Source: Sarea resinae
Lineage: Eukaryota
Assembly: GCA_026026165.1 (NCBI GenBank)
Contig: JAPEUD010000020.1
Span: forward strand, 310,001-349,540
DNA: 39,540 nucleotides
Direction: 5' to 3'
The notes beneath the pieces are model-generated. The model made no database searches. It was not told the DNA's origin and worked only from the letters and a program-made list of their open reading frames with translations. The position numbers were made by a program, and so were the translations under genes. Numbering within the stretch: the stretch's first letter is position 1; each line of letters opens with the position of its first letter. Shown piece by piece: positions 13,252 through 37,733 of the stretch.

Positions 13252-13673
13252 GGTTGTAAGCCTTAATAGCCTGCTAAAGAAGCCTATCCTCCTATAATTT
13301 CATAGCCTTTTCACCTATAGCCACTGAAATTCCTTTAAAAAAGAGTTAAGCTTTCTCTTTTTCACCTAAAAAGACTAGGTCCTATAGTCTTTATAGTCCC
13401 TAGGTAGTTATTTAGCTTTTAGATATATAACTTAGCTTGCAGTTAAGAACCACTTACAGTAGACTGCTTATATTAAGCCTATACTTATAGACATTAGGTG
13501 TATATATACTTAATAAAGATTTTCCTAATCCTTTGTGCTGCCTTATAGGTAAGTGCTTAATATATGCTGCCTTTACCTAGTCCTATAGTATCTATAGCTT
13601 GTGTCTATAGAACTATAGCATATCCTTAGCAGCTTGTGTTCTATAAAACAGCCTTTGTGCTAACCTTTTATGC

Positions 13674-14214
13674 TGTTAGAAGGCAGCACAAAGATATAAG
13701 TAGAGGAAGGTGCTAAAGAAGTGTAGTATAGAATGATTGTGTATTATAAACTTAGAGATTCTAGCTATAGAGGTGTAAGGCAGTCAATATATAGACTTGA
13801 CTAACTTACTAGAAACTTCTAGTGATGACTAATTACATGAGTGATTTGTAAGCAATAGGCTGACAATGACATAGGCTTTGTAAGAAAGTCAGGAGATAGT
13901 TGTGTAACCTTTATGTCATAGAGTTCTATAGATATCTAAGAGATTCTATAGACTTCTAGACAGTTCTAGAACATTCTAGAAAGTTCTAGAAGGTTCTAGA
14001 TGCTTAGTCAGCATATAGTGATGCTTAGTCAGCATATAGTGATGCTTAGTCAGCATAGCTATAGAATCTTCTAGAATGTTCTATAAGATTCTATAGAGTT
14101 CTATTAGCTTCTATAGGTCTGTAGAAGCTTCTAGATGTATCTATACTGTCATATGACATTCTGTAACAGTCTAGATACTTAAGAGTGACTAGAATTAAGG
14201 TTATAATTCTAACA
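13674..14214 (-). mobile_element. Solo LTR (copia family), inverted orientation
   Basis: TGTTAG...CTAACA with 5-bp TSD TATGC at 13669-13673 and 14215-14219. Near-identical reverse complement of 16049-16588. Confidence 0.92.
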
Positions 14215-15020
14215 TATGCATCTATAGAACTTGTAATAGTGGTGCAAAAGCATAAGACACTCTTTGTGCAGCTATTTCACATATCTATAGAACTTCTAAG
14301 TTCTATAGGTGTATAAAAGTCATACTAGTGTGATTCTACTACTTGCAGTAGAATACACCTAATAGCTAGTAGTCCTTTTCTCTGAAATTAGGTAGGAGAT
14401 TAGTAATCACAGCTATATCTAATCCTGCATATAAAATCCCTAAGCTGCAAGGCAGCTCTAATTAGGATTTCTAGTCTATAAGGATAGAATCCCTGCTTAT
14501 AGAGAAGGGCTATTTTAAAGTCATGTTAAAAGACTCTAATAATAGTACAGATTTAGATTCAGACTATTTTAGGGCAAAATCTGTAAAAGCTCTAGCCTAT
14601 ATTAGGCTTGCTCTAGCAGATAGCCTATTACTAAAGACTAGATATCACACTAATCTATAAAAATTATAGGCTAGTCTGTAAGATCTCTATAAATCTAAGG
14701 GATTTAATTCTAAATTCCTAATTTATAGAGAGTTGTTTAGTACTATAACTCTTAAAAAAAATGCAAGGATCTAGAAGTTATATCACAAAAACTAAGCAGC
14801 TAAATAATAAGCTAAGGGCTAGAGATCCAATTCCACTTAATAAATTTATAGCTGTGTAGACTCTAAACAACCTTACTAGTAACTATAATAATATAGTTAC
14901 TATTATTACACAAACAATTAACAAAAGCAAAGACAAGGATATTAACCTAGGGAAAATCTTTGCACAGCTAATAGATAGTAACTCTAAGAGATTTAAGGTC
15001 TCTAAGAGCACTAGCACTAG

Positions 15021-15573
15021 TAACTATCAGCAAAAATGTAAAATGTTTCATGCACCTATAGTGTTACAACATGAGACTATAGTGACTTCCTAATGTTTCT
15101 GTTTACTATGTATTTTTATGACGCTACTATATAGCCTTATAATGCTACAAGTAAGGTAGTGATACTTTATAATAATTCGCTAATCGCTTACATAAGCGAA
15201 AAATTAAGCGGAATTAAGCGGAATTAGCTCTAGCGCTATAGGCATCAACGCTATAACTTCCTAAATAGGAAACTATGAAAATTCATGAAAATTCACTTTG
15301 TAATTAGCAAGCGCTCACCCTATAGCCCTATAGGCTAGGCATGCTAGAACTACCTATAAGTGCTAAGTTCGCGAAGTTGCACTAGTGGCATGAACAGGTC
15401 ACCAGAGTACGTACCTAGCGTCAAAGGCTTCTAGAGTTATTAGAAGCTACCTTAGTAGCTCTATAGAATAAGCAACTCTATAAGAGGCTAAAACTTCTAT
15501 AGGCTCTCTAGACTATCCTAGCCTTCTAGAGTCTCTAGGAGCAGTTCGCAATTTTTGCTGATAATAATAGTTA
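15021..15573. mobile_element. Non-autonomous TIR element with 9-bp TSD (Mutator/MULE-like MITE)
   Basis: TSD TAGCACTAG at 15012-15020 and 15574-15582. TIRs TAACTATCAGCAAAAATG.. / ..CAATTTTTGCTGATAATAATAGTTA. Removal restores the gag frame (SKSTSTSKDIEVAL). Confidence 0.8.
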
Positions 15574-15957
15574 TAGCACTAGCAAGGATATAGAGGTAGC
15601 TCTTACCTCTAAGAGCAAAAAACACTGTGATTATTAAAGGCTAAATAATTATAATAAGTCTATATGCTTTAAAAAGCACTTTAAGCTAAGGAAAAGCAAA
15701 AAGCCTAATGCTAAAAAGCATTGTGCTAACTCCTCTATAGTAGAGGAACTATAAGAGGAAAAGAGCTTTATAGCTATAAGCTCTAATTCCTATAGATACC
15801 CTAAATCAGTGTTAGAATGCACTGTTATAAGCACAGTGTTAGAATGCACTGTTATAAGTATAGTCCTAGAGAGAACTGTTACAAAGCTATAAAAAGGCAC
15901 TACTACACCTAAAGCTTTATATAGCTGTATAAAATTCAAGCTAAAATGCATTGTTAC

Positions 15958-16987
15958 TAGGGTAGCTGCTCTAACTAGATTTTCTAATCTAATAGTTCTG
16001 CAGATAAGGCTTACAGACTAGATAAGGCTAGTCTAGTAACCCATTAACTGTTAGAATTATAACCTTAATTCTAGTCACTCTTAAGTATCTAGACTGTTAT
16101 AGAATGTCATATAACAGTATAGATACATCTAGAAGCTTCTACAGACCTATAGAAGCTAATAGAACTCTATAGAATCTTATAGAACATTCTAGAAGATTCT
16201 ATAGCTATGCTGACTAAGCATCACTATATGCTGACTAAGCATCACTATATGCTGACTAAGCATCTAGAACCTTCTAGAACTTTCTAGAATGTTCTAGAAC
16301 TGTCTAGAAGTCTATAGAATCTCTTAGATATCTATAGAACTCTATGACATAAAGGTTACACAACTATCTCCTGACTTTCTTACAAAGCCTATGTCATTGT
16401 CAGCCTATTGCTTACAAATCACTCATGTAATTAGTTATCACTAGAAGTTTCTAGTAAGTTAGTCAAGTCTATATATTGACTGCCTTACACCTCTATAGCT
16501 AGAATCTCTAAGTTCATAATACACAATCATTCTTACTACACTTCTTTAGCACCTTCCTCTACTTATATCTTTGTGCTACCTTCTAACATTAACCAATAGT
16601 GTGTTAGTAGAACAATAGTCAACCCAACCTAGGATAATCCATTTTAATCCAACATGTAATTTTCAGCACTGTTACATACTGAGAACACACCTATAGGTGC
16701 TGTTTATATGTCTTACAGCATAGTTTCACGCACCTATAGGATGTAACAGTAACAACAAGAGGTAACGCTCTTTTTATTATATAGGAAATTGACTTTTCTT
16801 AGTGTTTATACACCCTAGACCTACGATTACATAAGCACTATGTCACGTGCAGTAGTGCCAAGAAAAAACCGACTAAACTTACAATTGGGTTGGATTTTAT
16901 ACTCTATAACCTATTCACTCTAGAAACCCACATAGGGTTAGTGAACCCTAACCCTAATCCGTTCAACCCAACCTATATGCCAGCCTA
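15958..16987. mobile_element. Non-autonomous hAT-type MITE (about 485 bp net) carrying a solo LTR
   Basis: 8-bp TSD ATTGTTAC at 15950-15957 and 16988-16995. Ends TAGGGTAGC / GCCAGCCTA. Subterminal AACCC/GGGTT repeats. Confidence 0.82.
16049..16588 (+). mobile_element. Solo LTR (copia family) inserted in the hAT MITE
   Basis: TGTTAG...CTAACA with 5-bp TSD TTAAC at 16044-16048 and 16589-16593. Confidence 0.92.
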
Positions 16988-17629
16988 ATTGTTACAGAGT
17001 AGATTCTTAACTTAGGTGTAACAACATATATCTGCTATAAGAGAGAACTTTTTAACAATCTTAGACCCTATAGTACTACTATAGCAACATGTATAAAGGA
17101 TATTAAACTAAGATTTACTCTAACAAATTAGGTAGTAAATATTAGAGATATCCTATATATCTCTAACTTTAGTGTAAACCTACTATCTCTAGAGGCAATT
17201 ATAAATAAGGGCTATAAAGTCAACTTTAGCTATAAAATATCCTTATCTAAGATAATAAGGGTAGTCTTACTACTAAAGAGACCTATACTACATTAGTAAA
17301 AAGAGAAGAGGTCTATGTAGATATAGTGTAGATACATAGTATGTAGTACTAGTTCTATGTAGATAGTAGTGCTACAGTATATCTACAGTGTTGTATAGCA
17401 ATATTGTAGTATATATACTTGTCTACTAGTAGATATAAAGGTAAATACATCTCTATATAGATATACATTGTCTTCTATGTACTTGTTATTAGGTTATATG
17501 TAGTAGATACTTGTTATAATATCTCTATAGAACTTATACATACTATCTATACTACATAGTGTCTACTAACAGCTACATAATATTAGGCAGTTGATTTTGT
17601 ACTACACAAGCTATATAAGCTATATAAGC

Positions 17630-20600
17630 TACACTAGAACTTCTATTAAACTTCTAAAATCTATTTAGTGAAGTATATTTCCTAGTTAATATATTTGTTT
17701 ACTAGAAAACGTTCTTTATAATCTAAGCTGTTAGAAGGTATCTTAATTACATAACTTAGCTCTATTATATCTTTAACGTGTATAATACACTCCTTATTAG
17801 TTATTAGATAGCCTTTACTATAAGCAGCTATATTGTCTAACCTTTTAATAATAGGTAGACAATGTATTATATTCTAACTCTCTAGTTGTTTAGCTTATAC
17901 CTAAGTGATTAAAGCTAGTAATATTAGAGCAAACCCTAGTATAGTAAGACTAAATAGAAATTAATATTAAGCTAATAAATAGGTGCTAACTAGCGCCTAT
18001 CTATTAGCTGTACTATATCTCTCTAGATAGTATACATTGTCTTTTACCTAAACCTAATTGTTTCTTCTACCTACACCTTGCTACAATGTTATACATTAGA
18101 TAGTTAACTCTAACATATCCTTATAGTTGTTATTTACCTCTTAGAAACACATTATAGAAGATGCTTTATCTATAAGCTAGCTACTTATATATAAGTTTAA
18201 TATTTGCTAGTTAATATTTAGCTGACTATGTTTACTAAACAATGTTTTAACAAATATTAGCAAGGCAATTATAAAGTCTAGTAGACCTAGTTTTACAATT
18301 TGTTCTAATAATTGTAATAGATATCTATTAAAACCTTTAAGGATAGGCAATCTAGTATTTAATATCTGTACTATATTAAGAGATAATAGCCTCTCTATAG
18401 CTATCTTACACGCCTTAAAATAGAAACATTAGTTATAGTATTTTAATATCTATAGAGTAGCATGTTAATAATTTAATGCTTACTAGCTTAACTTTACTAT
18501 TATTTAGTAGAGAGCCTCTAAACAGTTAGTAGAGAAGCTATAAAGAGACTTAAATTATCTGATTATAGATATATAGTGACTAATAATATGTATCTTAAGG
18601 AAGTTAAAATATGCACCTGCTTTTAGAGCCTCTTCTCTTATATAATCCTTTGCCTACTATATATTATCTTCTTTTCTCTAACTCTTATTAGAATATACAC
18701 TGTATTTCTGCTTTTGCTTTCTATTAGCTGTTAGCTAAGAAGCTCTTTATAAAGCTCTTTATAACACTATAGCACGTGCTGTTTAGGATACTAAGCGCGC
18801 TATAGCTACTATTCCTTTATTAGTATAAAATCTCTAGAAAATAGCTTTGTGTTTATAGAAGACACTTAGTAGAAGGTCTATACACTTAAGGGTTTTATTG
18901 TTATAAGTATATAGTTATATAAAGAAGATAAAGTTAATAAAGGACTGTATATATATTATTGCTTGCTTAAAATCCTAGTGCTGTTATACAAATAGATTTG
19001 CTAATAATATAGCTGTAATAAGGACTAGGAATTTTACTACATTCTGTATTTCTTTCTCTTACTACTATAATATCTAGAGATAGGTCTTAGTTAGCAGACT
19101 AAAAATTAGATACACTAGTATTACAGTCTATAGAGAGTTAAAAGTGTCTAGTTATTTGTATAGAAGTAGGAATGCTGCTAGCTAGTTTAGAAGGTGCTAT
19201 AGTATACCTATATAAACTTAATGCAGTAGATCTAGTTTTAGCAGATTGTAGATATTAACACTTAGCAGAAACTAGAGGCTATTAAGTGTCTTTCTAACAC
19301 CTTTCTACTCTAGCGTTTATATATTACTCTTCTTTAGAAGTTGCTAGTAGTTTGCTAAGTCTCTTACTATCTAGTTATTGTCTTCTAGATAACAACTAAG
19401 GTTAGCCTATAGATATTTATATACTAGATAGTAGCCTTATATAATATTGTATATTATAACAACCTCTTTATAGTTAGCTACTTACTTAGTAAGCTGTAGA
19501 AAACAATTCTAAGTATAACTATCTATATATAGTATCTATATACTATTCTCTCCTAGCTTTCTAAGTGTCTAAAGAGCCTAATCTAGTCTATTATAGTATA
19601 GTTAATAATAATAATTCTGCTTTTAAACGTTATTCGCTTTAATTTGCTTTAGATAAACTAGTAGAAGACCTAAGAGAATAGTTGCTTGCAATAAAGGTTT
19701 AGCTTAAAGCGTGCTTAGTAAGATACTAATTATAAGATATATTAGCTATATATACTTATCGCCTAAGAAATTAGTTAGATAAGTTTTATTAGACATATAG
19801 ATTAATAGGACTAGTGATAAGTTTTTAGGCAGTGTATCTTAGTAGATAGTTAGCACTATATCTAATACTAGATAAGTGTGATTTATATACCTAAGTCTGC
19901 TACTACTAATTCCTAGTATATATATCTAAGTATAGTTAAGTATTTTGTTCTCTATACAATTTTATAGGCGAATATACAAGCGCCTCTTTAAACTGTAAGT
20001 GTCTAAGTAGAAATAAAATACATCTTAAGAGATCTTTAAGATATATCTATATCTTTTTATTATAATACCCTAAGAAAGATATTTCTTTCTATTCTCTACC
20101 TAGCGTTCTAAGTATAGTTAATATCCTATCTAATTTTTAACGCAGAGTATATACAGATTAGAAACTAGAGCAGTCTTATCTTATAATGTTGTTATTAAAG
20201 AACTTATTAATTGCAGTTAAGGTAATATTGTTCTGTAGAAACTACTACGCTAGTCTATAGTCTTTAATAGTATTAAACAACGCTTAAGATTAACTAAGGT
20301 ATATATTATGTCTTTTATTTAATTGATTAGGCAATTTATATAGTTTGCCTACTAATAGATAAGCTATTAACTAGATAGCTATAAGCTTTGCTAGCGATTA
20401 TATATATAGTGTAGTCTTATAAGCTACTTTATCTAACAACTAACTACTATTATAATCTAGTTAATCTTTAGCGTAGTTAATATCTATCTTGCTATAGATA
20501 TCTGCTAGAATATTGCAGTTAGTATAGCTATTAGTGTTGTTGTTAATTGTAGAGCTAATATCTGCTATTTTACCTTAGTGTTTATTGCGTTTCTTAAATA

Positions 20601-20682
20601 ACAGTAGATTATAGCGTCTTATATATAAAGTTAACTATAGAGAGTGCGTTGTATTATAACTATATATATAGCATTTTAACAT
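17630..20682 (-). pseudogene. Plavaka-family transposase with N-terminal C2H2 zinc finger (RIP-inactivated)
   Basis: De-RIP reading: ATG 20682 with CxxC-x12-HxxxH; NPWAPFDTIEDYRLAWWF; MHTGNWWWQTQ|intron|DTLP...PLICMSDKTHLTNFSGDKHVWPMYLTIG about 19790; PDLLHQVYMG about 19230; SQWQGKEMRN about 19060; C-terminal FLVNKYIDW about 17690. End coordinate approximate. Confidence 0.88.
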
Positions 20683-21629
20683 TGCAATATCCTCTAGTAG
20701 TTGTTGCTATACATATAATAGTGTAGGTAATTGCTTTACACATTATATTTATAGAGGCGAGTTTAAAAGTCTAAAGAGTGACTAAGTTATTAGTTAGGTG
20801 ATATTAGTGTTAGTATATAGGCAACCTATACATTTATACTAATATAGGTAGATAAGGTAGTGATTTCTATTTCTACACATATATTAATTAATATACACCT
20901 TTATATTAAGCTTATATTAGGATAGGACTTCCTAAGCATAATTATTATATTGCTCTTACCTAGAAAAAGCATAAACTCTAGCAGACCTATATAGTACACC
21001 TAATTCTATAAGATTAGCACCTTACTAACTAAAGAGACTTAGTAGAGAAAAGTACCTTATTAGCTAACTGCTAGTAGCCTTTATTATCTACTCTCTAGTC
21101 CTTTAAACTAACTGTCTAGGTGATCTAAACAATTGTCTTATTATTAGCTATTAGATATATATTATACTCTTAATCTAACAAATAAAAGCAAGGCAGTATT
21201 ATAACGTTGTATAAAACGCATTGCAAGTTAGTATAAGATATATAACACTGTCTAAGCAAGGGCTAAACAAGTTAATAATTTAATTAGAGATATAATCTAG
21301 CAGGTAGACTTCTCTTTAGCCCTAGCAGATTACTTTAGATAACAACCTTAAAGATAGGCAGACTATTAGGAATACTTATATATTGTTATCTAAGATTGTT
21401 ATAAAAAGGAGCGAGATTAAAAGAAGAGAGAATATAGTCCTCTTATAGCAGATAGTGACACAACTAATAATAATAATAGAGAAGGCAAAGATAATAGTAG
21501 TACACTACTATCTACTAGCGTAGTAGAAATATTAACTTCTAGTATAAAGACTCTAACTAGTAAGTAATATCTAATACCTATTTAATATCTATATCCTTAT
21601 ATACTAGATAGTTAAACGTTATATTATCT

Positions 21630-22700
21630 AGGATATATACTATAAAGAGAACGCCTTTAAATCCTAGATACACTCTTTTCTATCCTCTTTAATAGAATCT
21701 ATCTAATAAGTTGTTAGACGCTATATACCTAGCTATAAGATAGTTTAGATAGACTTAGATATTAACTACTAGACGTTTTAGATTAAATATAATAGTGAGC
21801 TAGAGTCTGCCTTTAAACTTTTTCTAGAAGAAACTATACGTTTAAAAATTATAAGTGTAGCCTATAATATAACACTATAACTATTTAATAATATATGTCT
21901 AGATAACTAGACTATCTTTACCTAAGAGATAATTATCTACTAATTGTTATTATCTAGCATTACTAAAGAGATATATATCTGTATAAAACCTAATAAACAG
22001 ACAGATTACAGAAATTTACAATTTAGAAGAAGAGTAAGCAGATAGTATATCACTTAATTGTAGGATTAGACCTAAACTAATAATGTAGGACTCTTATCCT
22101 ACTAAGTACCTCTTATTACTAGCCCTAAACATGCAAGTAAAAGTAGTTTGCCTTAGAAGAGGCTATTATCTTGCTACCTAAGTAGTAGTAAGTAGATATA
22201 CTATACATATCTATTAGATATTACTAAGAGATAACTGTTGTTATATATCAGATAAAATTCCTATCTGCTTTGCTAATAAGATTATATACACAGATAAATA
22301 CAGCATACTAGAAAGACTAAAGAGGCGCTCTTATTATTGTGTATTAGATAGTTTAATTAATTATAATAAGCGTGTCTAGCGTGATAATAAAAGCATCTCT
22401 ATAATATATAACTATAATAAGATAGTAGGTGTTTAGCAGAAGCTTTCTCTAGTCCTTAGTAAAGAAACCTAATTATCTACTGCACTTTCTTTAGAGGTAG
22501 TTATATAACGTTCTATTATATAAACTATATATTAGTATCTGTTTTAAGTCTATTATATTATCTATATAATAAAAGTCAACTAATAGATAACACTATACAC
22601 TAGTCTAAATATCTAATTAGCTTTGTATAGTAGGTTAGCTACTCTAATTAGCGTTTAAGTGATTTAAAGACCTACTTTAGCTAAAGATACAGATAAATTT
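21630..22700 (-). pseudogene. Unidentified RIP-degraded cargo gene
   Basis: One minus frame over about 21630-22050 has only RIP-type stops and protein-like content (..IRPFIGFHTDVYLFGNAG..RRGWKGVYPGFEGVLF..). 5' extent is a guess and no family was recognised. Confidence 0.3.
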
Positions 22701-25304
22701 AGTGATAAACTAGACTTAATTTGTATGCAAATAAGATAATCTACTAATTGTATTAGTTATTAATCTGCTTCTATATAGTACTATATACTCTAGTCTATTG
22801 TTAAGGACTACTATAGCACGATATTATAGTAAGGTACTCTTAAGTATATTTATATATCTCTTAGTATACTATTATATAGTAGCTATATAAATCTAAGTAG
22901 ACTATAACTACCTACTATGTTATAGTCTAAGATATACCTAGGTAGGTACTATATCTACTATAGTACCTTACCTACCTAACTACCTAGTACATTGCTTATC
23001 TATTATATAACATAAGGTAGTGCTTCTAATATATGTTGCATGTATATAGTAGCTATTAGCTAAAATGCAGATTTTATATGCAGTGTTACTCTACTATTCT
23101 TACTCTACCTCTTTATTTAATATTAAAATGCTAGATATACTACAGTTAATACTCTATTATAAGACTCTATCTTAACATTATATTAGCAGACAGTTTACTT
23201 AAGTAGTAGACTAACTATTAGACTTTTATCACTAAGTAGACACTATACAAGTAGTGCTGCTATTTATATTGCTTTAACCTTACTCCTACACTAATAGCTA
23301 TCTAAAACATAAGCAAACTATTATCTATATAATATATTGTATATTAGATATAATATTAGTTAGAGGTGCAATATTACGCACTAGATATACTAATAGCATT
23401 AAGTGCTAATAGCTAGAAACAGTTAATAATAGCAACGTTTCTTTATCTTCTTTCTTATATATTATAATGTTATTATTCTTTGTTCTATTTAGTTAGCTCT
23501 CTATTTACCTTATATCTCTATTTACTTCTGCTACTCTTATTTGCTGCTGCTACTCTTATTTACCTTACGCTATGCTAACGCGTTATTTATCTAATATTAA
23601 AGCTATAAAACCCTTACTACCTAGTCTAGCCTAATTAAGAATTCCTACTAGATATAACCTTACTTTATTACTAATTCAGATAATTATTCTATTAAGATAT
23701 TAACTTTATCTCTAGCCTTATTAGCTCTTTACTTATATTCTCTTATGTTATTATCTTTTAGCTTGTTATATCTCTCTTAGTCTAGCAGCCTAATTATTCT
23801 TATTATACTAAACTTAAGTTTAGTGCTATACTTTTAGCCTTAATTACTTTCTACTTATTCTCTCTACTAGTTATCTCTCTACCTCTTAATATATTATAAC
23901 AATCTAGCTAAGTAAGCTACTCTCTTATTATACAACAGATATAACTAATAAGAGATATAATAGGATGTAGTTTGTTAACTAGAATAAGAGACAGTTATAA
24001 GACCTAATCCTTAAGTATAAGAACTTATAAAAGAGAGGCTATTAGAAGTGTACCTAAATCTAGGTGTTATATTAAACAAAGCTAAGACTAGATTATAAGA
24101 GGCTATCTAGCAAGTATTATCTAACTATAGCTGCACTAACCTTTAAGCAGCAGGAAATTATATAGTTAACACTATAATAGAGGACATGATATAATCTACT
24201 AACTTTCTAATACTATCTGCAGACTAAATTAGAAGACAAGCTGCTAGATAGAGCTATAATTAGGAACACCTATTTATTATTATATAAGATATCTATAAGA
24301 AGCTATAAGATAATATAAAGAAAGAACTACAATCTAAAAGTAGAACTCAATTATTGCTCTTATCTAACACCTCTAGTACTTTAGCTACCTCTTACTAGCT
24401 AGCTCTCTCTTAGTAGAAAGCTACTAAACAGATATTGCAGCAGCTTATAGAGATATCTATAAGTAAGAGACATATAATTATATTGATTAAATAGCACTTG
24501 CTAACAGCTAATAGACATTTAATCTAACTCTAATACCTTTCTACCTAGTAGCCTTACTACTCTTTATACACTAATACCTTCTTATCTACTAACTATCTAT
24601 ATAGCACCTCCTCTTATAGAACTACTAATAGGTAAGAGGTATATATATTTATCTATTAACTAATATTTGCTAATAGTTAATAGATAACTAACTAGCTAAA
24701 TAGTATATAACAATAGATAATAAGATAAGCACCTAACTTTTCCTACTATTATCTCTAACTATAGATAGTATCTGTAATATTATTGCTAGGTTTATCCTAT
24801 AAGCAGCGATTATTAATAAGATTAAGACAGATATAGAGAGAGAGAGAATTAGATTAGAATACAATAAAGAGGTTATACTAGTACTTAAGTTAGGCCTATA
24901 ACTAATTGTATTCTATGTTATAAGTGTCTCCTTATAAGAGTATATTAATTTCTAGTTGTTAACCTTATATAGGATGTAAAACGCAGAAACCTTAAGCAGG
25001 CTAGTAACAACTTAGTTTCTATACAGATAAGACCTAGACTAGGTATATACACTGTCTGCTATAAGGTATTATGTCTAGTCCTAATACAGTTGTTAACTGT
25101 CTAGTGCAACAGACTGTTTAATTATCTAACTAGAGACATATTATACAAACCTAAATGTAATAACACTAAATACTACTTTACTCTCTACTACTAAGACTAG
25201 CTAACACTTACTAAAGAGTTAGTTGTTAGGCCTTATAGCAAGTGTTAGCTAGTCTAGTAGCACACCTAAGTTGTTGTAACCTCTGCTATAAAAAACTTAA
25301 CAAC

Positions 25305-25430
25305 TATCTAAGAGTTAGTTGCTAGGCTTATCTAAGAGTTAGTTGCTAGGCTTATCTAAGAGTTAGTTGCTAGGCTTATCTAAGAGTTAGTTGCTAGGCT
25401 TATCTAAGAGTTAGTTGCTAGGCTTATCTA
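25305..25430 (+). repeat. Perfect 24-bp tandem repeat x5.25, between two ~115-bp direct repeats (about 25160-25275 and 25475-25590)
   Basis: Unit TATCTAAGAGTTAGTTGCTAGGCT, in frame with the SNF2 N-terminus. Confidence 0.95.
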
Positions 25431-25920
25431 CAAATAAATTGCTAGTTATAGATCTAGAACAAGACTGTTTGCTAATAACACTAAATATAACCTTACTCTC
25501 TACTACTAAGACTAGCTAACACCTACTAAAGAGTTAGTTGCTAGGCCTTATAGCAGGTGTTAGTTAGTCTAGTAGCACACCTAAGTTATTACTATATTAG
25601 CTAAAGGAAACGCAACGTCTGTTACTAGTTCCTAAGCTAGGTCGCTATAACGTTAAGCGTAAGCTGCTAGACTTAAACGCAGTACTATTCCTTATTACTA
25701 TAGAGCTAACTCCTTATAGACCTATCACTGCAAATTAAAGATAACATTTTTAATAAGCTTATATATAACCTAATAAGAGATAAGGCTAATAAAGAAGACA
25801 TTAATAGCAAGGATACTAATAAAGAGGATGTTAAGGATAAAGATAACAACAAAGATAATATTAATAATAATAATAGCAACAAAGATAACGTTAATAACAA
25901 GGATTATCTACCTGTTAAAA

Positions 25921-26070
25921 ACAATAATCTACTGCCTAATAATCCTCTAAATAATAATCTGCTACCTAATAATCCTCTAAATAACAATCTGCTACCTAAT
26001 AATACTCTATATAATAATCTGCCACCTAATAATACTCTATATAATAATCTGCCACCTAATAATTATCTAT
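25921..26070 (+). repeat. 30-bp tandem repeat x5 (Pro/Asp-rich peptide repeat after de-RIP)
   Basis: Unit approximately ATAATAATCTGCYACCTAATAATMCTCTAW, following an acidic tract. Confidence 0.9.
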
Positions 26071-29000
26071 ATAGCATAGAACATTGTCTGCCTAGTAAGT
26101 ACTAGAATAATAGGTAATAACCTCTACTAACTTTTGTCCTTACTTTATAGGCCTCTAAGACCTTAGTGCTTTTGCTAGCAAATAGTATAACAAATTAGAG
26201 AGAGTAGATAACCTAATTAAGAGAATAAACCTAGTGATAGCAAAACGCTAAACAGTTATTTAAAATAGTCTAGCAATTTAACATAACACACTCTAAATGT
26301 AGAAGGATATAGCAGCTATATTCCTTATTTCTAAACATATTGTATTAACAACCTAAATACCTATAAAGCTACTGTTCCTTTAAGCACCTATTTAACTACT
26401 ACTATATTAAGCTACAGCTATTATGTTTATATTACGCAATAAAAGCAACAGAATTAGAGAGGGGTTTTTAGCAGATAGAATAGGGTTTAGAAAGGTGTGT
26501 GTCTGCTGTAATATCTCTTTAATATGTACTTAAATTAATAGCTAATGCTTAATCTACTAGCAGACACTAATAACGTTAGCTCTTATTACTACTTTATAGA
26601 CCTTATACTATAATCACTTAGATATAATAAAGAGTTAGCAAATCTATAACAGAAGATATCTAAGGGCTAGTAGTAGGTATTATCTGTATAAGACTTTAAA
26701 TATTATATAACATTTTACTTACACTTATATTTGTTAGACAATATAGATAACAATACTAAATACAGCGTTAAGTGTTCTAGTAACAACTCTTATAAGATAT
26801 AATGCCTATATTAACTAGGATCTATAACCTCTTAAATCACTGTAGATAAAAGAGTGAATATAGTTATATACCTAGTATATCTTACTTGTATATAGGTAAT
26901 AGAATACTAAAAGTCGTTCACTATATAATAGATTGCTAAGAACCTAATAGTTCTTAAGCATAGCTAATAGGAATATAAGTTTACAGACTTAATAGAAACA
27001 GACTCTAGTAGCAAACACATAAGATTAAATATTATCCTAGTGATATTGTTTAAGTGTTTATAACTTTGCTGCAATTTGTAGGCAGAAACTTGATTTTAGC
27101 AGATAGTAGTAAATAAGGCGCATATTATTAAATTAAAGAACACTAACCTAATCTAAGACCTAACTACCTTAAGACAAAGCTATAAGGAACACTAGCCTAT
27201 AATGTAGTTCCTCTCTAGCACTCTATTTATTATGCCTAGAGACTTAAGAGAGAAGGTAAATATTCTTATATATACTTAATAGATAACTAATCTCTCTTGT
27301 ATTAGATAAAAATGCTTGCCTAAAAAGTTAGACTTTATTAAAAGTCAGTACAAAAATCTATTTAATTGTATAGCAAAACCTAACAGACTATAACTGCCTC
27401 TTACTAATAAAGACTTTAATTAATATGCCTAGAATTTTATTAGCTTCCTTAGTGTGCTAATAATCTAATAGGATAAAAATGCAGTTAACTTAGATAGCTA
27501 CCTGCTAATTAACCTCTTACTATTCTACAGATATAAATTATTAGTCTAGTTTAGCAATAACTGCTAGAAGATAGTATACAAACAACAACAAGCTATTATA
27601 GTAGTAAGAACAAACTAAATTCTAGAGTTAAATAAAGGATAACGCATTACTTTAATAATATATTTCTAATATATATAGCGACTACAAATTATCTCTTTAT
27701 TCCTAGGCCTTACCTACTCTAATCTAGCTAGGTTAGACTAGAGCTTATTAAGCGTTAGGTCTATAGCTACTAAGGATTAGGAATTATATCTGTTGTATAA
27801 TAATCTAGAAATACTTAGCTAGTTATTCTCTAAATTAAAAGTACTAGATAATCTTATTAATAATATAGGAGTGAATTTAAGGATAGAGAGTAAAAAGATA
27901 GTTATCTTTACTATATTCCTAATCACAGCCTTTATTATTATAATAGTAAGTAGTATTTATCTACTAGATAATATACTTAGGCTAATAGCAGATATATAGT
28001 AGATAAAATATATTAGATACAAGCTAGTTGCTCTATTCTATAGTAGAATCTCTATAGCAAAGCGCTTAAGGTTAGTAGAACAATTCTAAGGCACTATAGA
28101 TATATTCTCTAGCTTAGAACCTTTTTACTTAGTTAGGACAATAGGTATAATATTACTAGGCTTAACCTTAATTCGTGCAAATCTAGCAGTTGTCTTTAAA
28201 CCTAATTATATAGACACCTCTAAGTAATAAGCACTTAATAGAGTTTACTATATTAGCTAGTATAGCAAGGTGAGTTTGTATTAATTTATTAACACTAAGT
28301 CTGCAATTAAGAATATACTTATAGCTACCTAGAGGTTAAGAGGTATCTTAAATAACATAGCCTTAAAGAAGAACAATCTGCTAGTTCTGCTACAAGTTAA
28401 AGTTAAGATTAGTAATAAAGATAATATAGATACTAAAGATAATAACCCTTACTATTAACCCTATAATATATAAAGAAGATAAAGACAAATAGAACATGTA
28501 ATAAACACAGCTAACATAAGTTTTTATTTAATTATAGACAACTTTATAATACTAAAAGCAGTAGATATATATGTCTACTACTCTTAAGACTATTATCGCC
28601 TACTCTTCTACTATACTCTATTCTAGCAGCCTAGTAAGGATTGCAGCAATAGTTAGTTCTAAACTATAAGTGTCTTCTAGATAACTTTAATAAGGTATAG
28701 AAGCTAATATCTGCTAATCTACTTTAAGTTAGTCTCTTTTATTCTATTTAGTGTTGTTTTAATTAGTCTAAGCATGTATAAATCTAAATTAATTATATAA
28801 GTTGTCCTAATAGCAATATAATTGTCTGTTAATTTGTAAAGATATAATTTAAGTAATAATACTTATCTCTACTTAGACTAACAATTCTCTCTCTCTTTAA
28901 ATTCCTATTTAACACTAATATCTCCTACACACTAAACTCTTAGCTATCTAAATCTACTCTATATAGAGAAGCTAGTAACTTTTACAATGCCTCTTAAACA

Positions 29001-31363
29001 ACTCTAGACTTATTCCTAGCAAGATATTTAGTCTGCTAAGGAATAAAAACTTAACTACTTTACTAATAGTAATACTTATTTCTATCTCTACTTATCTAAT
29101 CTATGCTAAACAAAGTAGTTGCCTTCTATAATACTTGCACTTAATAAAAGACTACTACTAAAGGACTAAATATAGTTTAAATCTAGTGATTGCTACTACT
29201 ACTTCTCTAGTCTAAGAGCAACTATAGCTAATGTTATTAGATAGCAATAAAGAGAATTATAAGCGAGCTATAATATCTCTAATATAAAGCCTACCTAGTT
29301 AGTTATCTAATGTTAGCGCTATATCTGCTGCTAAAAACGCAGAAGATAGTAATAATTCACTTAATCTAATAACATAGAATACACCTACTTAGAGAAGAGG
29401 ATATTAGTTAGACAGCACTAAGGGTCTAGAAAGTTAACTTATACTAGCAACTCCTAATAGCTAGATAAGTACACTAATAGATAAAGAAGTATCTAGGCGC
29501 AATTGTCTGCCTAGAAAGAATCTAAATAAATAAGAGTGTCTTTATATAATAAGAAGACAAATAATAAGCCTTAAGCTAAATCATATTAAAGTGAACTTAG
29601 TTAATTGCAAAGAGAGTACACTAATAAGCAGACAATATATATCTAATAACACCTAGGCTACCTTATACTTAGTAGAACAGCAATAAATAAGTAGTAAGGC
29701 AAATTAAACTGTAAGAGAATTACCTATAAGATTCTAAGATCTTCTAATAGATAGACATCCTATATATAGGTCTACTACTAGTTAGAAGGCAGCAAAACAA
29801 ACTAACTAAAGAGATATCCTTTAGAAGCTTAACCTTTTTAACAGATAACTACTAGAAAAGCTTTATATATAAGATCTATTAACAAACACTTTCTAGAACA
29901 GATTATTAATACTACCTCTACTATTATTAGCAAGTCTTACTCTTAGAGTACTTGTTTTTAATTTTACTTATAGATAATAGGTTCTAAGTAATAATAAAGG
30001 ACTCTTATCCTCTAGTCTCTATTCTAGAGCAGTTAGTAATAACTTAGACTCTACCTCTACACATGTTTTTAATAAGATAGACACACTAAGAACGCTACAC
30101 TAATTATCTAGCACTCTATAAACGTTTATAAATAATTAGAGTGTAGGTTTAAGTTAGCTTCCTACACTAGATATAAGAGCATATGTAAAGGTTTAAGTGT
30201 ATTTAAAAGAGTGCTATCTACACTATAGGTATTAAGATATTTATCTAATAGCTAAAGTAATAATAAAAATATATGTTATTACTTAGAACTCTTTCTTAAA
30301 AAGCAATAGTATAGCTACTATCTATGCTAATATATAGGACTAGGCTTATATAAAGGCAAAGGCAATTAAGATAGAGTATTAATTTCCTTATCCTATTAAA
30401 GACTCTAAACAATATAAAATAGAGCTGCCTGTATATATTAAACCTATAGTAAGTAAGACTATTAAGTAATATTTCTACTATCTACCTACTAACTCTAAAT
30501 AATTAAATCTTATTAGCTATTAATTAGAATAAGCTAGTAATAAAGATATATTGTATTATAGTGTTATTAACTAGTAGTAGACCTGTATAATCTGCCTCTT
30601 ACTAAACTAGAACAACTTAAAAGGAAAGTAAGTCAACTACTAGATTAAGATAGTTTTAACTGTTAGAATATATCTATTTATATACAAATCTCTCTACTTG
30701 TTTGTTAGACCGCCTCCTAGACTTCTAGCTATAGTAGAGTAGGTAGGAATAGCATAATTAAATAGGCTAGTGCACTGCAGCGTGCTAGCGTCACTCTAGC
30801 GATGCAGAACTAATACTATAGATATAGATATTGCTAGTAGGCACTGACTTTGTAATTGCACTAAACGCTAGCCCTAATAGCTAGCGCCTCTATTAATCTA
30901 TATAACTAATAACCCTGCTTAGCTTACCTAAACGTTGCTGAACCACACTAGGTGGTTACCCTGCGCTGCGCTAAGCTGCATACAGCACCCTTATTAGTAG
31001 TAGCCTTTACAATTACCTTCTCTCCTAGGACCTAGTCCTCTAGGTCCTTTGTTCGCGATGTATAACATTATAGTGTTAAGTCTTTGTCTTGCTAGCGCCT
31101 TAGTGGCGTTGCTATTCGCTGCAAACAGTGAATTTGTGTAGATAACAAAGAGAGTTCTTTGTCCTATTTGCTTAGTTTACTAAACGCTGCGCTAGGGTGG
31201 TAGCAGTGAATAGATAGAGTGAATGCTTTAAACTGTCTGCATTAGGCATTCTCTCTATCGCTTAGAGGTCGCTTAGCTATAGGTGTGTAGGTATAAAACG
31301 TAGGTGATCTAGTGCGCGCGCGCATAATCAAACTTTTTGCACCACGTTTTAGGTACATTCTAT

Positions 31364-32061
31364 ATGCCTATTATAAATCCTAGACGCTTTGCCGCGCCTC
31401 TACCACGTGTGAACCAGCCTGCCGCCGCCCTCTAAAAGCCTGTAGAACTGAATCAGGACGTCTGCCTCTGCTACGCTAAGGTTATTAGGTCTACGCTAGA
31501 TATTGTCTGTACAAAGGCCTTATTAGCTGCAAAGTGCACACAATATACTTAGTTGCATAAGAAGTGTAGTTAGGTAAGTGACTCCTACATAGTGCTAGCC
31601 AGGCTCTAACCTAGCGTGCTAAAGGTGCCTACAGTCTTCTGCAAGCGCCTGAACTAGCTTACTAAGGCGGCTAATGTAGTGGTTAGCTACGCTAATAACA
31701 ACTCTACTAAGGAGCTGTTAGCCGCTGCGCTCTGCGATCTACAGAGGCGATTCACTTGCTAGGTCAAAGTCTATATAAACGCTGCTAACAAGCACCTGTC
31801 TAATAACGCGCTCTATATAGCTATAGCGACAGAACGACTTGCTAATAGCGTTAAAAGCCTTAATAATATCCTCTAGTTTGCTGTAAGTCGCATGTAGAAC
31901 GCTAGCAATGCGACAGCGCTAACCTAGTCATCTAGTTCGATTTGCTATCTGTTACACGCGCAGGTAAGAGTGACAATAAGGATAATAACAATACAACTGC
32001 GCCTCTAGAGAGGTCTAGCAATCAGGCTAGTCAGGGCTAGGCAGGGCAGACTAGTTAGTGA
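31364..32061 (+). pseudogene. Antisense spliced accessory gene in the gypsy 3' region, Zn(II)2Cys6-like
   Basis: ATG 31364. Pattern C-x2-C-x11-C-x8-C-x2-C-x6-C from 31463 (two Cys read TAC/TAT, RIP-type). Phase-0 introns 31574-31624 and 31883-31935 with GTAAGT donors and CTAAC branch points. Acidic tail. Confidence 0.7.
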
Positions 32062-32619
32062 TAGGATAGTAGTTCTTTCTGTTTCCTTTGTATACTAGAT
32101 AGCTTTAGGTTCGCGCTAGGACAGCGCTAGAGGTTAATTTCACTTTTCTTTTCTATGACTTTATCTCCTCTTATAACTGTAGCATTGTAGCCCTATAGCC
32201 TAATAGCCTTCTACAGAGACTGTACGCTGTTAGCATACAATCGCATCGCAGGCCTACCCCTACATTAGCTCGCTAAAACCACCTAAAAACCTTTGTAGGT
32301 AAAAGAGGTAGAAAGAGTTCTAACAGCAGCTCCTTACTAGTGCTGCAACAGCGTGTCCTTTCTAGGACAGCTGCAAGGTCTCTTTCTTGCAATCACCTAC
32401 AGCTTTAGGCTATACTTCTATAGCCTTCCTTGTAGGCGTTTCGTTACTAGCATCTCTAGGCTAGCTAGGGGTTCCTTATAGGGTAGTAGATTCTTCCTTA
32501 GGCAGCCTCTTAGCCTCTTAGCTGTCGCCTCTACAGCGCTATCACTAAGCAGTCGCTTCCTTAGTTAACTGCAAGGCTTAGTTAACAGCACACTAGCATC
32601 CTATTCCTTGTTCGCTAGG

Positions 32620-35600
32620 CCTCTATGCTAGTTAGAGAGTAAGTGCTGTTTATAATCCTATACTAGGTCTATAGCGTTTGCTAGGTGCTCTGCTAGCTCC
32701 TAGCTAGTATTATCTACTAGAGCTCCTTTCTACTTAACTAGATATTGTTGTTCTCTCTTAAGTACTCTATAGCCTAGGATTTTCTTAACAATCTACTTAA
32801 CCTAGCTATTAACTAGCTTAAAGTGCTAGTGAAAGGTATTGCTGTCGCTGTAGTAGCGCTTAAGCAGCGACATATGAAATACAAGGTAGATAGATCTATA
32901 AGCCTTAGAGAGCTATAACTAGTAGGCTTGCTTGCCTATAGAGTTAAGTACTACAAATAGGCCTATATAGCAGTGCTCTAACTTCTTGCTCAGGCGTATA
33001 GTGCTAAGGTTGCGCGCTGACAGCATAACTCTGTCGCCTCTTTTGTATTGCATTAGCTTATGTTTCTTATTATACCACTTAGCTTAGTACTGCTATGCCT
33101 TAGTAAGATCCTCTTCTAGTCTTTGTCTTACCTCTTAGAGGACGTTAAGGCGCTTGTTCGCCGCTAGCACCTCTCTCTCTATAGCATTGTCTGTGATATT
33201 AAGTTGCAGATCTAGGTTATAGCTATATAGGGCATAAAAGAGTGACATTCCTATAGATAAATGTATGCTATTATTGTATGCATACTTAGCTATAGGTAAC
33301 AGCAGAGCCTAGTCGTCCTAGCAGCTGCTTATATAGCACTGCAGGTAGTGTTCTAACGTCTAGTTTTGCCTCTTAGTCTAGCTATCTGTCTGCAGGTAGA
33401 AGGCAGTGCTAAGCTAGTTCTTAATTCGCATTTAATAGCATATCGCTAACTAAAACTTGCTTGCAAATACACTGCCTCTATCTGATACAATGCGCTTCAG
33501 ATTGCTATACGCTGTTGTCACAACGTCGACAAATATATCTGCAAGCATAGCAGCATTTAGATTTGTTTGGCATAGAATATATTTCGCTATCTTTGTATAG
33601 CAGTCAACTACTACTATTATTATGTCACAGGCCTTGCAATCTCTTATGTTGCTTAGCAGCAGGCCTGTCACAAAATCTATAGTGATTTCTTTAAACAGCT
33701 AGTAGGGCATAGGTAACGACTGTAGCTCGCTATATAGGCGATGCCTAGGCACCTAGACCCTTTAACATATATTGCACTCATTGATATATTCTTTGACATC
33801 CTTAGCTAAATTAGTCTACTAGTATTTACGCTAGATCACCTCTGTCGTTCTCTTAGCGCTAAAGTAGCTACTAAACAGGTTATTATAGTTTATCCTTATA
33901 ATTTCTAACCTAATAGCCGCATCACGCGGCATATATACTTTGCCTTCTAGGTGTAGCAGGCCTATAGAGTCTATTTTCCACTTTTCTTAGCCTGTAACCT
34001 CCTTAGTAGGAATGCTTTTAATCTTTTCCTTAGCGAAATAATCTTTCTACTAAGTCCTAAGGATAACGTTAAGCAGCTAGCCTGTTAGCAGGTTGTACGC
34101 TCTTTTATTAGCAGCTGCTTTATACACTGCTTGTCTTATATAGAGGTGTTTAAACTCATCTCTTAATGCTGGCTCATTAGCATTGTTATTTAGGCTAGGC
34201 CTAGGTGTCACTCTAGTGCCTCCTTATCGCTCTTTAACATTAGGCTAGGTTTTATCCTATAACCTAGAAGGGGTTTTAATCCTTTGTAGATGCATATTAT
34301 CCTTTGCGCTTAGACTAGGTGTTATCCTAGCGCGCTGCTGTCGCTTATTAACAGTAGGCAGAGTGTTATCCCCTAACCTAGAGGGGTTTTTAATCCCTTA
34401 TAGATGCACATTATCCTTTAGCGTATTAGCGCCTATTTTGCCTAGATGCTTATTATCTGTTCTAGCAAGAAGGTTTTAGATCACTAGCGTAGTGCTGTCT
34501 CTCTTTAACATACGCAGGTTCTGCAGCTTCTGCTGCAGAGTAAGAAGCATTACTTCTAGACCCTGTGTCTTTACCTTGTAATCAGGGCGCCACAACAGCC
34601 TGTCAGCTAGATTAGCTTTCCCTGCTCTATATACAAGTTTAAAATCATACGCTGCTAGCTGTTCAGCCTATCTAGCCTAGCAATAGGTTAACTCCTTTGT
34701 TGTTATAAAGTAGCGTAGATTTGCATAGTTAGTTAAGACCTTAATAGGGTAATTAGCCTCTTCTAAGTAATAGCGCCATTGCTTAAAAGCTATTACAATA
34801 GCTAGCAACTCTAAGTCATGCACTTTATATCTCGATTCAGTATTAGTAAGCTTTCTAGACTAGTATGCAACTAGGTGCCACCTTAACGCTGTTGTCACGC
34901 CTTGTTTATCCTTGACTAGCTAGGATAAAATTGCTGCAACAGCAAATCTAGAAGCGTCTGTTTCTACTTGTATCTGCCTCTTTAGATTGTAGTAGCGCAG
35001 TATAGGCGCCGTTGTAAAAGCTTCTTTTAGGGCTTTAAATACTTCCTTAGCTTCCTTAGGGAAGTAGAATAGACTGCTTTTCTTTCTGTTCTTACTCCTA
35101 GCAAGCAGGCTAGTTAACAGCAGCGCTTTAACAGAGTATTTCTCTATAAACTGTTAGTAGAAATTCGCGAATCCTAGGAAGACTTAGAGGTTATAATAGG
35201 TCTTAGAGGCTAGCCACTCTTTTATAGTGTCTACCTAGCTCTTCTCTATCGCGATACTATTAGTCCTAATAACAAATCCTAAGAAATCAACTTCCTACAC
35301 TCTAAAGACACATTTTAAGGGCTTTGCATATAGGCTATAGGTTGATAGCTGTTTAAGGACCTAGCGTACATGCTTCTTATACTTATTAGGTGAATTAGAG
35401 TATATAAGAATGTTGTCTAGATAGACAACGCAGCAGACGTTAACTAGGCCTTATAACGCATAATTAATATAGCTCTGAAATGTAGCAGGTGCATTAGCTA
35501 ATCTAAAGGGCATAACCTTATATTCGAACTAGCTGTAACAAGTGCAGAACGCTGTCTTATACTTGTCGCCTTTGCAGATCCTTATGCAGTAGTAGGTATC

Positions 35601-37733
35601 TCTTAGGTCTAGTTTCGAAAAAACTTTAGCACTGCTTATTTAGTCTATAAGCTTAGAAATAAGGGGTAATAGGTATTGATTCTTAATAGTGACCTTGTTT
35701 AACGCCTAGTAGTCGACGCAAAGTCGCAAGCTACTATCCTTCTTAGGCACAAACAAGATTAGCGCACTAATAGGGCTTATAGAGAGGGTAATCTACCCCT
35801 TCGCTAAGCTGTTGTCTAGGTAGGTCTGTAGGATACCTAATTCTTTCTAGGATAATAGATATATAGGACTATAGAGAGGGTCTTTACTCTCTAACTTAAT
35901 AGTATAGTTAGCTAGGCTATGCTTAGGAAGCTAGCTAGCTTCCTCTTTACTAAAGACAGAAGCAAATTCCTTATACTATTTAGGTATCTCGTCACTAGCG
36001 CTGACCTAGCGAAGCTTCACTGCCTCTACAGGTTTAGGCACTACTATAATCCCTTAGCAGTTTAGCTGACGTTTCTTCTAATGTTCCTTGCTAAGCCTAG
36101 GCTTATCTATAGGCTTAACATAGCTGAATTTACCTTCTAACTAACGCATATTGTAGCGGTATAAGGACAGCTATAGATACCTAAGCAAGAATAGAGGACT
36201 ATTAAAGTCGCAGGCAAGGAACTAGCACTACACTGTCTTCCTTATGCTATTACTATTAGCGACTTGTATTTCTAATTAGTGTTAGCTGTAGATCGCTACT
36301 CGCAAGCCGTTCACTATTACTGCGCTAGGTAGCTGCCTAAGCTTAGCCTTAGAGATCCTATGCTCCTTAATCTATGATTGCAAAACTAGAGAAGCTTCTA
36401 CTCCTAAGTCAATTAAGGCAGTGCTATCTGCTGTACTACTAGGGGTGCAAATAGTTAGCGACGTCTCTAATTTCAGGGTTAGAGCTTCTTAAGGTTCTCT
36501 TACACTAAGATAGCAAATAGTGTAGGGTTCTAGCTCTAGTTATAAAGCTAGCGTAGGCCTGTTGTTGCGTTTGTTCTTGCAAGTAGAAGCAAAGTAGCTC
36601 TCTTAGCTACAGTTTAGGCAAAGGTTGCCTTCTTACTTGCAGCAATACTCCTTGTTAGGGAGCTGTTAAGGCCACTGTATAGACTTATCGCCTTTATTAT
36701 CCTTAGGCTAAGCAGAAGTTTTTTGTTCTTACAGAGGTAGGCTTTTGCCCTTGCGTTTAGTAGGATTAAACTTTTGTTTAGTTCCTTGTTTGTTCTAACT
36801 CCTTCCTTTCTCTGCGCTATCGCTATGCTGTCGCTTATTGTCTAGCTTAGATAGATTAGAGTTCTTATTCTTATTCCTTTTATTGCTTATACAAAGGAGT
36901 TCCTCTACTTGATTTGCTAACGCTACAGCAGCGCTCTACTTTTGTAGTATTAGCAGGGTTTAGAGCAGTTCCTAGTAAATTTCACTTTAGATCTTAGTAT
37001 AGAACAAGTTGCATCGCTGCTCTTTAGAGATGTCTTATCCTCCTAGCACTTCTAGTTTAATCTGTTCTAGGAAAGCTGCAAAGCTATTAATACTCTAGTG
37101 CAGCGCCTGCGTAGCGTTATAGTATAGCTATGATATTAAACCACCTTGATTTACTAGATCTTCTACTTAGTCTAGCAGGAATAAGACAAATTTATCCTAG
37201 GTATAGGTGTCTTTTCTAGTAGATTCTTTAACCTAGTGCTACGCTAGCGCTGGTTTGTCTTTCAGGTACTGCATAGCATATAGCACCTTTGCTACATTAT
37301 CACTTTTGTCTGCAATAGCACCTAGTTAGAACGCTATCTTATAGGATCAGACAAATTCATTATACTCCTTAATTGTCTTGCCTGTAAATAGCTCTAGAGC
37401 TTGGATTTTAGTCTAGTTAGTGATGCAAGGTGCTAGCGTAGCAGCTGCAAGGCCCTGTTCTAGCTGCAATGCTTACGCAAGTGCTTGTAGTTGCTGTTCT
37501 GCATAGAACTAGGCTATCTCTCTCTAGAGTTAACAATATTAAGCCTGCTGCTCTTTAGCGTCACGCTCTTGCTGTATTTAGTCTAGCAATTAATTAGTAA
37601 TCTAGTTAGAGACAGGCTCCTTAACCTTACCTTCTGCCTAGCTCGCTACTGTCTCGCTATTATCTCTATTAGCTCTCTTACCTAGCAGAGTATTAGGAGC
37701 CCTTATAGTATTACATGTATTTATTGTCGCTAT
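32620..37733 (-). pseudogene. Gypsy gag and pol relics
   Basis: Zn knuckle CLNCGQEGHFASTC about 36600; protease ALIDSGA about 36410; RT VYLDDILIYS about 35415; RNase H VETDASGFAV about 34960; integrase IVSDRGSVF about 33480; chromodomain QYLVKWKG about 32740. Confidence 0.92.

Follow-up and report, generated by a model that had tools for sequence, protein, structure and literature searches.

Relics of an SNF2-family ATPase gene and a Plavaka-type transposase gene in a many-copy, RIP-mutated repeat block of Sarea resinae

A stretch of 39,540 nucleotides of the Sarea resinae genome (assembly GCA_026026165.1, contig JAPEUD010000020.1, positions 310,001 to 349,540 of the forward strand), here called the window and numbered from its first letter, contains a block of heavily mutated repeat DNA in which the remains of two genes can be recognised. 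The first, on the plus strand at about 25.7-28.4 kb, is, judged by its sequence, a degraded gene for an SNF2-family ATPase. The second, on the minus strand at 19188-20061, is the relic of a transposase domain of the Plavaka family, which is related to CACTA/EnSpm. The two relics lie 5.6 kb apart in divergent orientation, within DNA that is present in many copies and that has been destroyed by repeat-induced point mutation (RIP). An initial annotation, based on the sequence of the window, had read 24915-28490 as a transposon-borne SNF2-like ATPase gene with a long low-complexity N-terminus, inserted within another transposable element. The analysis described below bears out the ATPase and its association with a transposon, shortens the N-terminus and finds no support for such an insertion.

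The window consists of a host gene-bearing left part of about 12.3 kb, with a guanine-plus-cytosine (GC) content of about 47%, and of AT-rich DNA that extends from 12.3 kb to the window end, the GC content in the SNF2 region being 26-32%. In all 11 sub-regions of 12.3-39.5 kb the TpA/ApT index is 1.26-2.94, against 0.72 in the host part, and in the same sub-regions the (CpA+TpG)/(ApC+GpT) index is 0.44-0.88, against 1.29. In other words, RIP of 12.3-39.5 kb is real. All three stop codons are RIP-reversible, and consequently the continuity of a frame after reversal is no test of coding. The RIP-aware log-odds score used here sums over the possible pre-RIP codons, with C to T and G to A changes at a rate of 0.5; a scheme taking the maximum score instead was dropped because of its positive drift. 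Stop-density profiling is too weak for gene finding, and a RIP-aware coding-likelihood track is good only for comparing one frame with another.

The SNF2 identity of the plus-strand relic is supported by PDB matches, by a profile search, by a motif scan and by a profile alignment. When stop codons were replaced by X, with no reversal of RIP, and the readings were compared by phmmer with 177,635 PDB sequences at E<=10, the C-lobe reading (27811-28347) matched only two sequences, both of them SNF2 proteins, namely zebrafish Rad54 (1z3i; E=0.039, 17.5 bits) and yeast Rad26 (5vvr; E=1.6, 12.2 bits). Moreover, a hidden Markov model (HMM) of the SNF2 core, 532 positions long, was built from 63 of 120 prokaryotic open reading frames (ORFs) carrying the pattern DEAHxIKN, the 63 being chosen by a Walker A motif upstream and a motif-VI pattern downstream. 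A plain hmmsearch with this model of the 306 stop-masked six-frame tiles of the whole window returned three matches with E<1 (9.4e-6, 0.002 and 0.026), all of them plus-strand tiles in 26251-29250, and the next best tile has E=5.4; this is thus the sole place in the window that the model recognises. A local, RIP-aware profile alignment, which combines the emissions of the HMM with the RIP model, was run on 12.3-30.7 kb, divided into 72 tile-frames. It gives 118.4 half-bits for the C-lobe tiles and 74.6 for the N-lobe tile, against 39.5 for the best unrelated tile-frame and a median of 31.9 for all 72. Specifically, profile positions 31-98, with the Q motif and motif I, fall on 26273-26494 (56.4 half-bits), positions 117-522, with blocks Ia to VI, fall on 26860-28404 (141.6 half-bits), and the motifs Q, I, Ia, II, III, IV, V and VI are colinear. 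As a pairwise RIP-aware reference, E. coli RapA is non-discriminating, with scores of 30.8-39.3 in all six frames. The locus illustrates that mutation-aware profile alignment can still recover gene content from heavily RIPed DNA.

The motif scan, in which five consensus strings were scored along both strands of 12300-39540, at about 54,400 positions, places motifs I (26468), II (27112) and VI (28228) each at rank 1, in the correct order and on the plus strand. Motif I is the best of 54,424 positions (26.7 against 20.3 for the next) and motif II the best of 54,436 (20.2 against 15.9). In the SNF2 family motif I has the form ..GLGKT, motif II is DEAH followed by x-I-K-N, motif III is L-T/S-G-T-P-x-Q-N and motif VI is Q-A-x-D-R-x-H-R-I-G-Q. 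Recovery of motif III is not clean, since its best match, at 27180, ranks second and lies in a frame other than that of motif II, while a second candidate at 27211 is in frame with motif II and is the one used by the profile alignment. Motif V is outside the top four of the scan and is only partly recognisable. The initial annotation had listed the Walker A, DEAH, III, V and VI motifs as recoverable after reversal of RIP; the scan bears this out for I, II and VI. In degraded form, these can be read by eye in the plus-strand frames as LADRIGFRKV (26468), NKAHIIK (27112) and ALNRVYYIS with a stop codon at either side (28228). The last residue of motif I is V instead of T, a difference that RIP alone does not explain. 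At 27112, four contigs of other copies have a G, which turns the N back into the D of DEAH.

Rad54 and Rad26/CSB, cellular SNF2 translocases with the same order of motifs, are the nearest solved proteins. These matches are weak, and the relic, which unlike them is repeated, dead and surrounded by a transposon block instead of occupying a host locus, appears placeable at the level of the SNF2 family only. The distance from motif III to motif IV is about 227 codons, introns included, that is about 65 above the prokaryotic profile. Membership in a Rad5/16-like subfamily was rejected because this span is too short for the large RING-containing insertion expected between motifs III and IV of Rad5/16-type proteins.

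The gene itself can be followed from an open first exon at 25710-26094 (plus strand), which has no stop in 128 codons and the best coding likelihood of the six frames. It belongs to an open frame of 131 codons (25710-26105) that is the sole ORF of at least 90 aa in 12.3-39.5 kb. The exon is rich in N, K and D, becomes acidic (D/E-rich) under reversal of RIP and contains a 30-nt (10-codon) repeat five times at 25923-26073. A 56-nt intron of canonical form (GTAAGT...TACTAAC...TAG) is predicted at 26095-26150; once it is removed, exon 1 (frame 0 mod 3) reads on into the frame of motif I (2 mod 3), which supports the open stretch as a true N-terminal exon. The next exon (26151-26497, plus strand) comprises the Q motif and motif I, with Walker A at 26468-26497. 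There follow 360 nt between motif I and block Ia (26498-26859), where the alignment breaks and the frame passes from 2 to 1 (mod 3); this part may correspond to one or more introns, an indel or an insertion. An internal duplication of 293 nt was considered as the cause of the frame change and rejected, the DNA comparison being at null level. Downstream, the core blocks Ia to VI occupy a single frame at 26860-28404, to which the hmmsearch match at E=9.4e-6 belongs, with motif II (NKAHIIKL) at 27112-27135, motif IV near 27892 and motif VI at 28228-28260. With 38 stops in its 515 codons, the core has a stop frequency of 7.4%, against a six-frame background of 11.0%. A further intron, at about 27254-27305, was considered but not upheld, as the profile alignment reads part of it as coding. 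The profile alignment stops at 28404 and is followed by a low-complexity tail (28405-28490) with a 9-nt repeat at 28413-28445.

The N-terminus had originally been taken to be a continuous frame of about 400 codons, rich in Q, H and P in its first part. Only 25710-26094, about one-third of it, can be accepted, and the low-complexity N-terminus is thus of about 128 codons. The upstream repeat-rich stretch, 24915-25709, is probably non-coding. In the proposed frame it has 38 stops in 265 codons, in excess of the 25 found in each of the other two plus-strand frames, and the coding likelihood of that frame is the last of six at 25140 and 25380 and the first at 25620 and 25860. Furthermore, the stretch contains a minisatellite of 24 nt (25305-25430), whose 5.2 units match at 100% and all retain an unmutated TpG, flanked by a direct repeat of 144 nt (25158-25301 and 25473-25616, 86% alike). 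A letter-perfect array in DNA where about half of the C/G sites are mutated appears to have been expanded or homogenised after the last RIP, and hence after the death of the gene.

On the minus strand, the transposase relic was first flagged by the coding-likelihood track, at 17.7-19.7 kb. The Pfam family PF18759 matches 19188-19793 with E=6.5e-14 and a score of 52.3 bits, where the cut-off is 26.3, over profile positions 118-322 of 325, and a weak colinear piece in another frame (19894-20061, profile 41-98, E=0.01) extends the match. The relic contains 18 stops in 204 codons. By this profile match the transposase is of the Plavaka type. No other transposase-like family, nor any other Pfam family, was found in the six frames of 19.7-25.8 and 28.4-30.7 kb, and the transposase reading found no match in PDB. 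The association with a transposon is supported in a form different from the Academ elements with which the locus had been compared. No sign of Academ was seen, the sole transposase signal being that of Plavaka, with the limit that the presence of an Academ transposase profile in Pfam is unchecked.

Both relics belong to a RIP-mutated repeat block that extends over 16589-30702. Contigs of one public sequencing run of the same organism (X1) were aligned to 10700-30699 at a likeness of at least 80%; two other runs (X2 and X3) contained next to none of the stretch, for which no RNA run is listed. In every one of the 21 bins of 16703-30699 the contig depths add up to 6074-10176, compared with 351.8 in the three unique bins of 10700-12700, so that the block stands at 17-29 times the depth of the unique flank. 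This depth is level, with 6074-7640 in the SNF2 bins (10176 over the repeats) and 6798-7534 in the transposase bins, and it does not jump at any point between the SNF2 part and the DNA on either side of it. Taken singly, the contigs listed for the block stand at 360-426, near the depth of the unique flank. The copies differ from one another by transitions at 760 of 810 places and by transversions at 50; this dominance of transitions is as expected for RIPed copies. Inside the SNF2 part, alternative bases are found in at most 11 contigs (at 26077) and in four at 27112. In general, these data suggest a family of roughly twenty diverged copies, as far as summed depth can stand for copy number. 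Moreover, a depth of 17-29 times over the SNF2 part excludes a one-off host gene. The occurrence of the SNF2 gene in this copy alone, which would have spoken for a single capture, is contradicted by the same figures.

Several further observations concern the block. The depth in the bin of the 24-nt minisatellite is about 1.4 times that of its neighbours. At the left margin, three contigs of other copies join 15951 directly to 16990, so that some copies lack about 500 nt next to a solo long terminal repeat (LTR). With a GC content of 37%, 16589-16989 is less rich in AT. A telomere-like (CCCTAA)2 at 16946 is not significant, a match being found in 24 of 100 shuffles. Downstream of the SNF2 gene, an inverted pair of 22 nt (29763-29784 and 30568-30589, 95% complementary, 783 nt apart) could be a small inserted element.

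Nested insertions are proven elsewhere in the block, where they consist of three solo LTRs and a Gypsy element. The three units of 468-541 bp, with TGTTAGAA..TTCTAACA ends, lie at 12784-13251, 13674-14214 and 16049-16588; two of them are 99% alike, in opposite orientation, and each of these two has a perfect 5-bp duplication (TATGC and TTAAC). With contigs that sum to a depth of 13,000-73,000, where unique DNA has 352, they probably represent solo LTRs from a family that is very abundant. The inverted units of 540 bp at 13.7 and 16.0 kb were considered as the terminal repeats of a larger element and rejected, since each has TG..CA at its ends and a 5-bp duplication of its own. Towards the right, the block is interrupted by the insertion of a Gypsy-type LTR retrotransposon (30703-38082, minus strand). 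It is recognised by LTRs of about 309 nt that are 98% alike, by a 5-bp duplication (TTGTT) and by RVT_1, RNase H and Integrase_H2C2 domains; it has a GC content of about 41%, is moderately RIPed, contains no ORF of at least 90 aa and is not part of the SNF2 element. The TTGTT duplication implies that 30702 and 38088 were formerly contiguous, and the RIPed block continues accordingly from 38088 to the window end at 39540. By contrast with these proven cases, the SNF2 gene had been thought to be itself an insertion within another transposable element; no boundaries were found at 24915 or 28490, and of the 45 inverted-repeat pairs found, none among the 25 listed stands out as enclosing the gene, so that this claim could not be upheld.

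On the host side, the plus-strand genes that adjoin the repeat block (6286-9206 and 10234-12337) comprise a gene, split into two open pieces, for an RNA-binding protein with several RRM domains, a weak signal of a TEA/ATTS domain and an ORF of 454 aa with no Pfam family, which ends exactly where the RIPed DNA begins.

Taken together, the locus is best explained, and with moderate confidence, as one dead copy of a large family of Plavaka-type DNA transposons that carried an SNF2 gene in a RIP-proficient filamentous ascomycete. The element would occupy at least about 13 kb of the window. Its transposase gene would run on the minus strand from about 20.1 to 19.2 kb and beyond, and divergently from it, on the plus strand at about 25.7-28.4 kb, there would be an intron-containing SNF2 ATPase gene with an acidic, repeat-bearing N-terminal exon. 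We infer that the two genes formed one mobile unit and that the SNF2 protein was its accessory factor. The sequence between them, at 20100-25700, may contain further cargo or regulatory repeats.

A number of points weigh against this explanation. The ends of the element were not found in the window, where neither terminal inverted repeats nor a target duplication of 2-3 bp could be seen, and on the right the element may extend past the window; as a result, the unity of the transposase and SNF2 genes is argued from level depth and adjacency only. RIP blurs short terminal motifs. The 5.3 kb between the two genes (within 20100-25700), although part of the same many-copy block, have no Pfam match in six frames. 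The skip of 15952-16989, together with further joints, reveals structural variation on the left side. As for the depth, run X1 is possibly the window's own sample and in that case not independent, and summed contig depth is not equal to copy number. Finally, several searches for the proteins were negative. Pfam reports no SNF2 domain at E<=1 in the stop-masked frames of 24.0-30.0 kb, and the two N-lobe readings matched no SNF2 protein of PDB in the plain phmmer search. The stop-masked SNF2 reading gave no match among the 8000 candidates scored in a word-indexed protein search and none in an exhaustive phmmer search of 1.84 billion representatives, and the transposase reading found none among 624 candidates.

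Among the other explanations, the one that has most to be reckoned with, though we judge it unlikely, is that two unrelated repeats stand side by side, the SNF2 gene belonging to another mobile element or repeat that abuts the Plavaka element or is nested with it. The missing ends, the 5.3 kb of unrecognised sequence between the genes and the insertions nested elsewhere in the block are all in keeping with such an arrangement, and a candidate carrier can be named, as a passage of PMC3627910 mentions SNF2 helicases in 'Inton and Enton' transposons. Against it, the depth is level across all 21 bins and shows no step between the genes, a six-frame search to the left and right of the SNF2 gene gives no second transposase signal, and no bounding inverted repeat stands out among those listed.

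A captured host gene would differ from the best explanation in function only. CACTA-type elements capture fragments of host genes, and the SNF2 gene, with at least one predicted spliceosomal-type intron and thus a host-like layout, might have been acquired in this way as a passenger (transduplication) and then have spread with the family while not serving it. We regard this as distinctly unlikely. The relic is not a fragment, since the core is present and colinear from the Q motif through every block to motif VI; its segment matches the remainder of the block in abundance; and the accessory genes of Plavaka elements, in the parts of the literature that describe them, code for whole chromatin- or DNA-modifying enzymes. 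Lastly, RIP can extend into unique DNA beside repeats, and the relic could on this account be a single, immobile host SNF2 paralogue killed by RIP leaking from its neighbours. Such an origin is most improbable, in view of the contigs at least 80% alike that cover the SNF2 part at the many-fold depth given above, and of the alternative bases that several of them have at 26077 and 27112.

Returning to the transposon family with an SNF2 gene, the question is what the protein may have done for the element. Both genes are full of stop codons and, consequently, nothing in the present copy is functional. The initial annotation had proposed that the SNF2 protein may give access to heterochromatic targets or act against silencing. 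If functional, it could have been a DNA-translocating motor that kept the chromatin of the element accessible or countered its silencing; we tentatively prefer this role by analogy, because the accessory genes known from other Plavaka elements are of an epigenetic type. A second and less likely choice is a Rad54-like repair of the excision or insertion site, for example the homologous repair of an excision gap that would restore the donor copy. This role is kept open because of the weak nearest-neighbour signal to Rad54 and Rad26. That the SNF2 gene is a standing accessory gene in a lineage of large Plavaka transposons of filamentous ascomycetes is conceivable, if rather doubtful.

Accessory enzymes have precedents among Plavaka elements. 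According to the relevant passages of PMC12730594, Plavaka is a lineage related to CACTA/EnSpm, with TGT..ACA or CATCA..TGATG ends and duplications of 2-3 bp, and some of its fungal families carry a TET/JBP dioxygenase, which is thought to counter methylation. The element described here resembles these families in its Plavaka transposase, its fungal host, its multiple copies and the presence of a gene for a chromatin- or DNA-directed enzyme beside the transposase. It differs from them in its SNF2 ATPase cargo, in its RIP-proficient ascomycete host and in its termini, as none of the forms considered (TGT..ACA, CATCA..TGATG and CATAC) was found in the window. In red algae, giant Plavaka elements of 17-19 kb carry three accessory genes, PAG1-3, described as having domains that modify DNA or histones; one is of unknown kind, one combines an N6-adenine methylase with SET, and one combines ParB with a 2OG oxygenase (bioRxiv 10.1101/2025.02.11.637652). 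As far as that description goes, both elements are large (at least about 13 kb here) and have several kilobases of epigenetic-type accessory genes beside a DDE transposase, methylase/SET and ParB/2OG domains there being set against SNF2 here. In the same preprint the word 'helicase' occurs 0 times and the single 'SNF2' concerns host gene families, not Plavaka. Among Ascomycota, Plavaka is recorded in Tuber (truffles) in the portion of PMC12581995 that deals with it. Full-text literature searches, which did not cover the supplements of PMC12730594, found no Plavaka or EnSpm element reported to carry an SNF2 gene.

Helicases as second proteins are also known from other DNA transposons. The 'Inton' and 'Enton' elements are said to encode an SNF2 helicase in one sentence of PMC3627910, which cites Kapitonov et al. 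To the extent of this one-sentence mention, they are alike in being eukaryotic DNA transposons with an SNF2-type helicase as a non-transposase protein; the literature searched yielded no description of them. The Academ helicase is of the RecQ type, as the passage on it in PMC3627910 indicates and in agreement with the initial annotation. AcademH is mentioned as occurring in fungi in PMC10799480, and the duplications of Academ are given as 9-10 bp in the lines of PMC10045372 that concern it. The likeness consists, within these mentions, in a DNA transposon known in fungi that has a helicase of superfamily 2 as its second enzyme. The difference is that a RecQ-type helicase and duplications of 9-10 bp are found there, an SNF2 motor and a Plavaka transposase here.

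Transposons that carry enzymes acting on chromatin or on DNA marks show how mobile DNA fights the silencing imposed by its host. The copy in the window is an inert relic, whose direct biological effect is that of ordinary repeat DNA. If the association described here is true, SNF2 cargo would bring an ATP-driven remodeller, or a translocase for repair, into the known set of Plavaka accessory genes, and would represent a third kind of epigenetic counter-defence cargo beside the TET/JBP dioxygenases and the methylase/SET/2OG modules. It would also provide a concrete candidate for the way in which an element of the cut-and-paste type gets to open chromatin or maintains it, or mends the site of its excision. 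Should the SNF2 gene be a standing accessory gene of this lineage, intact and possibly active members would be expected in relatives with weaker RIP.

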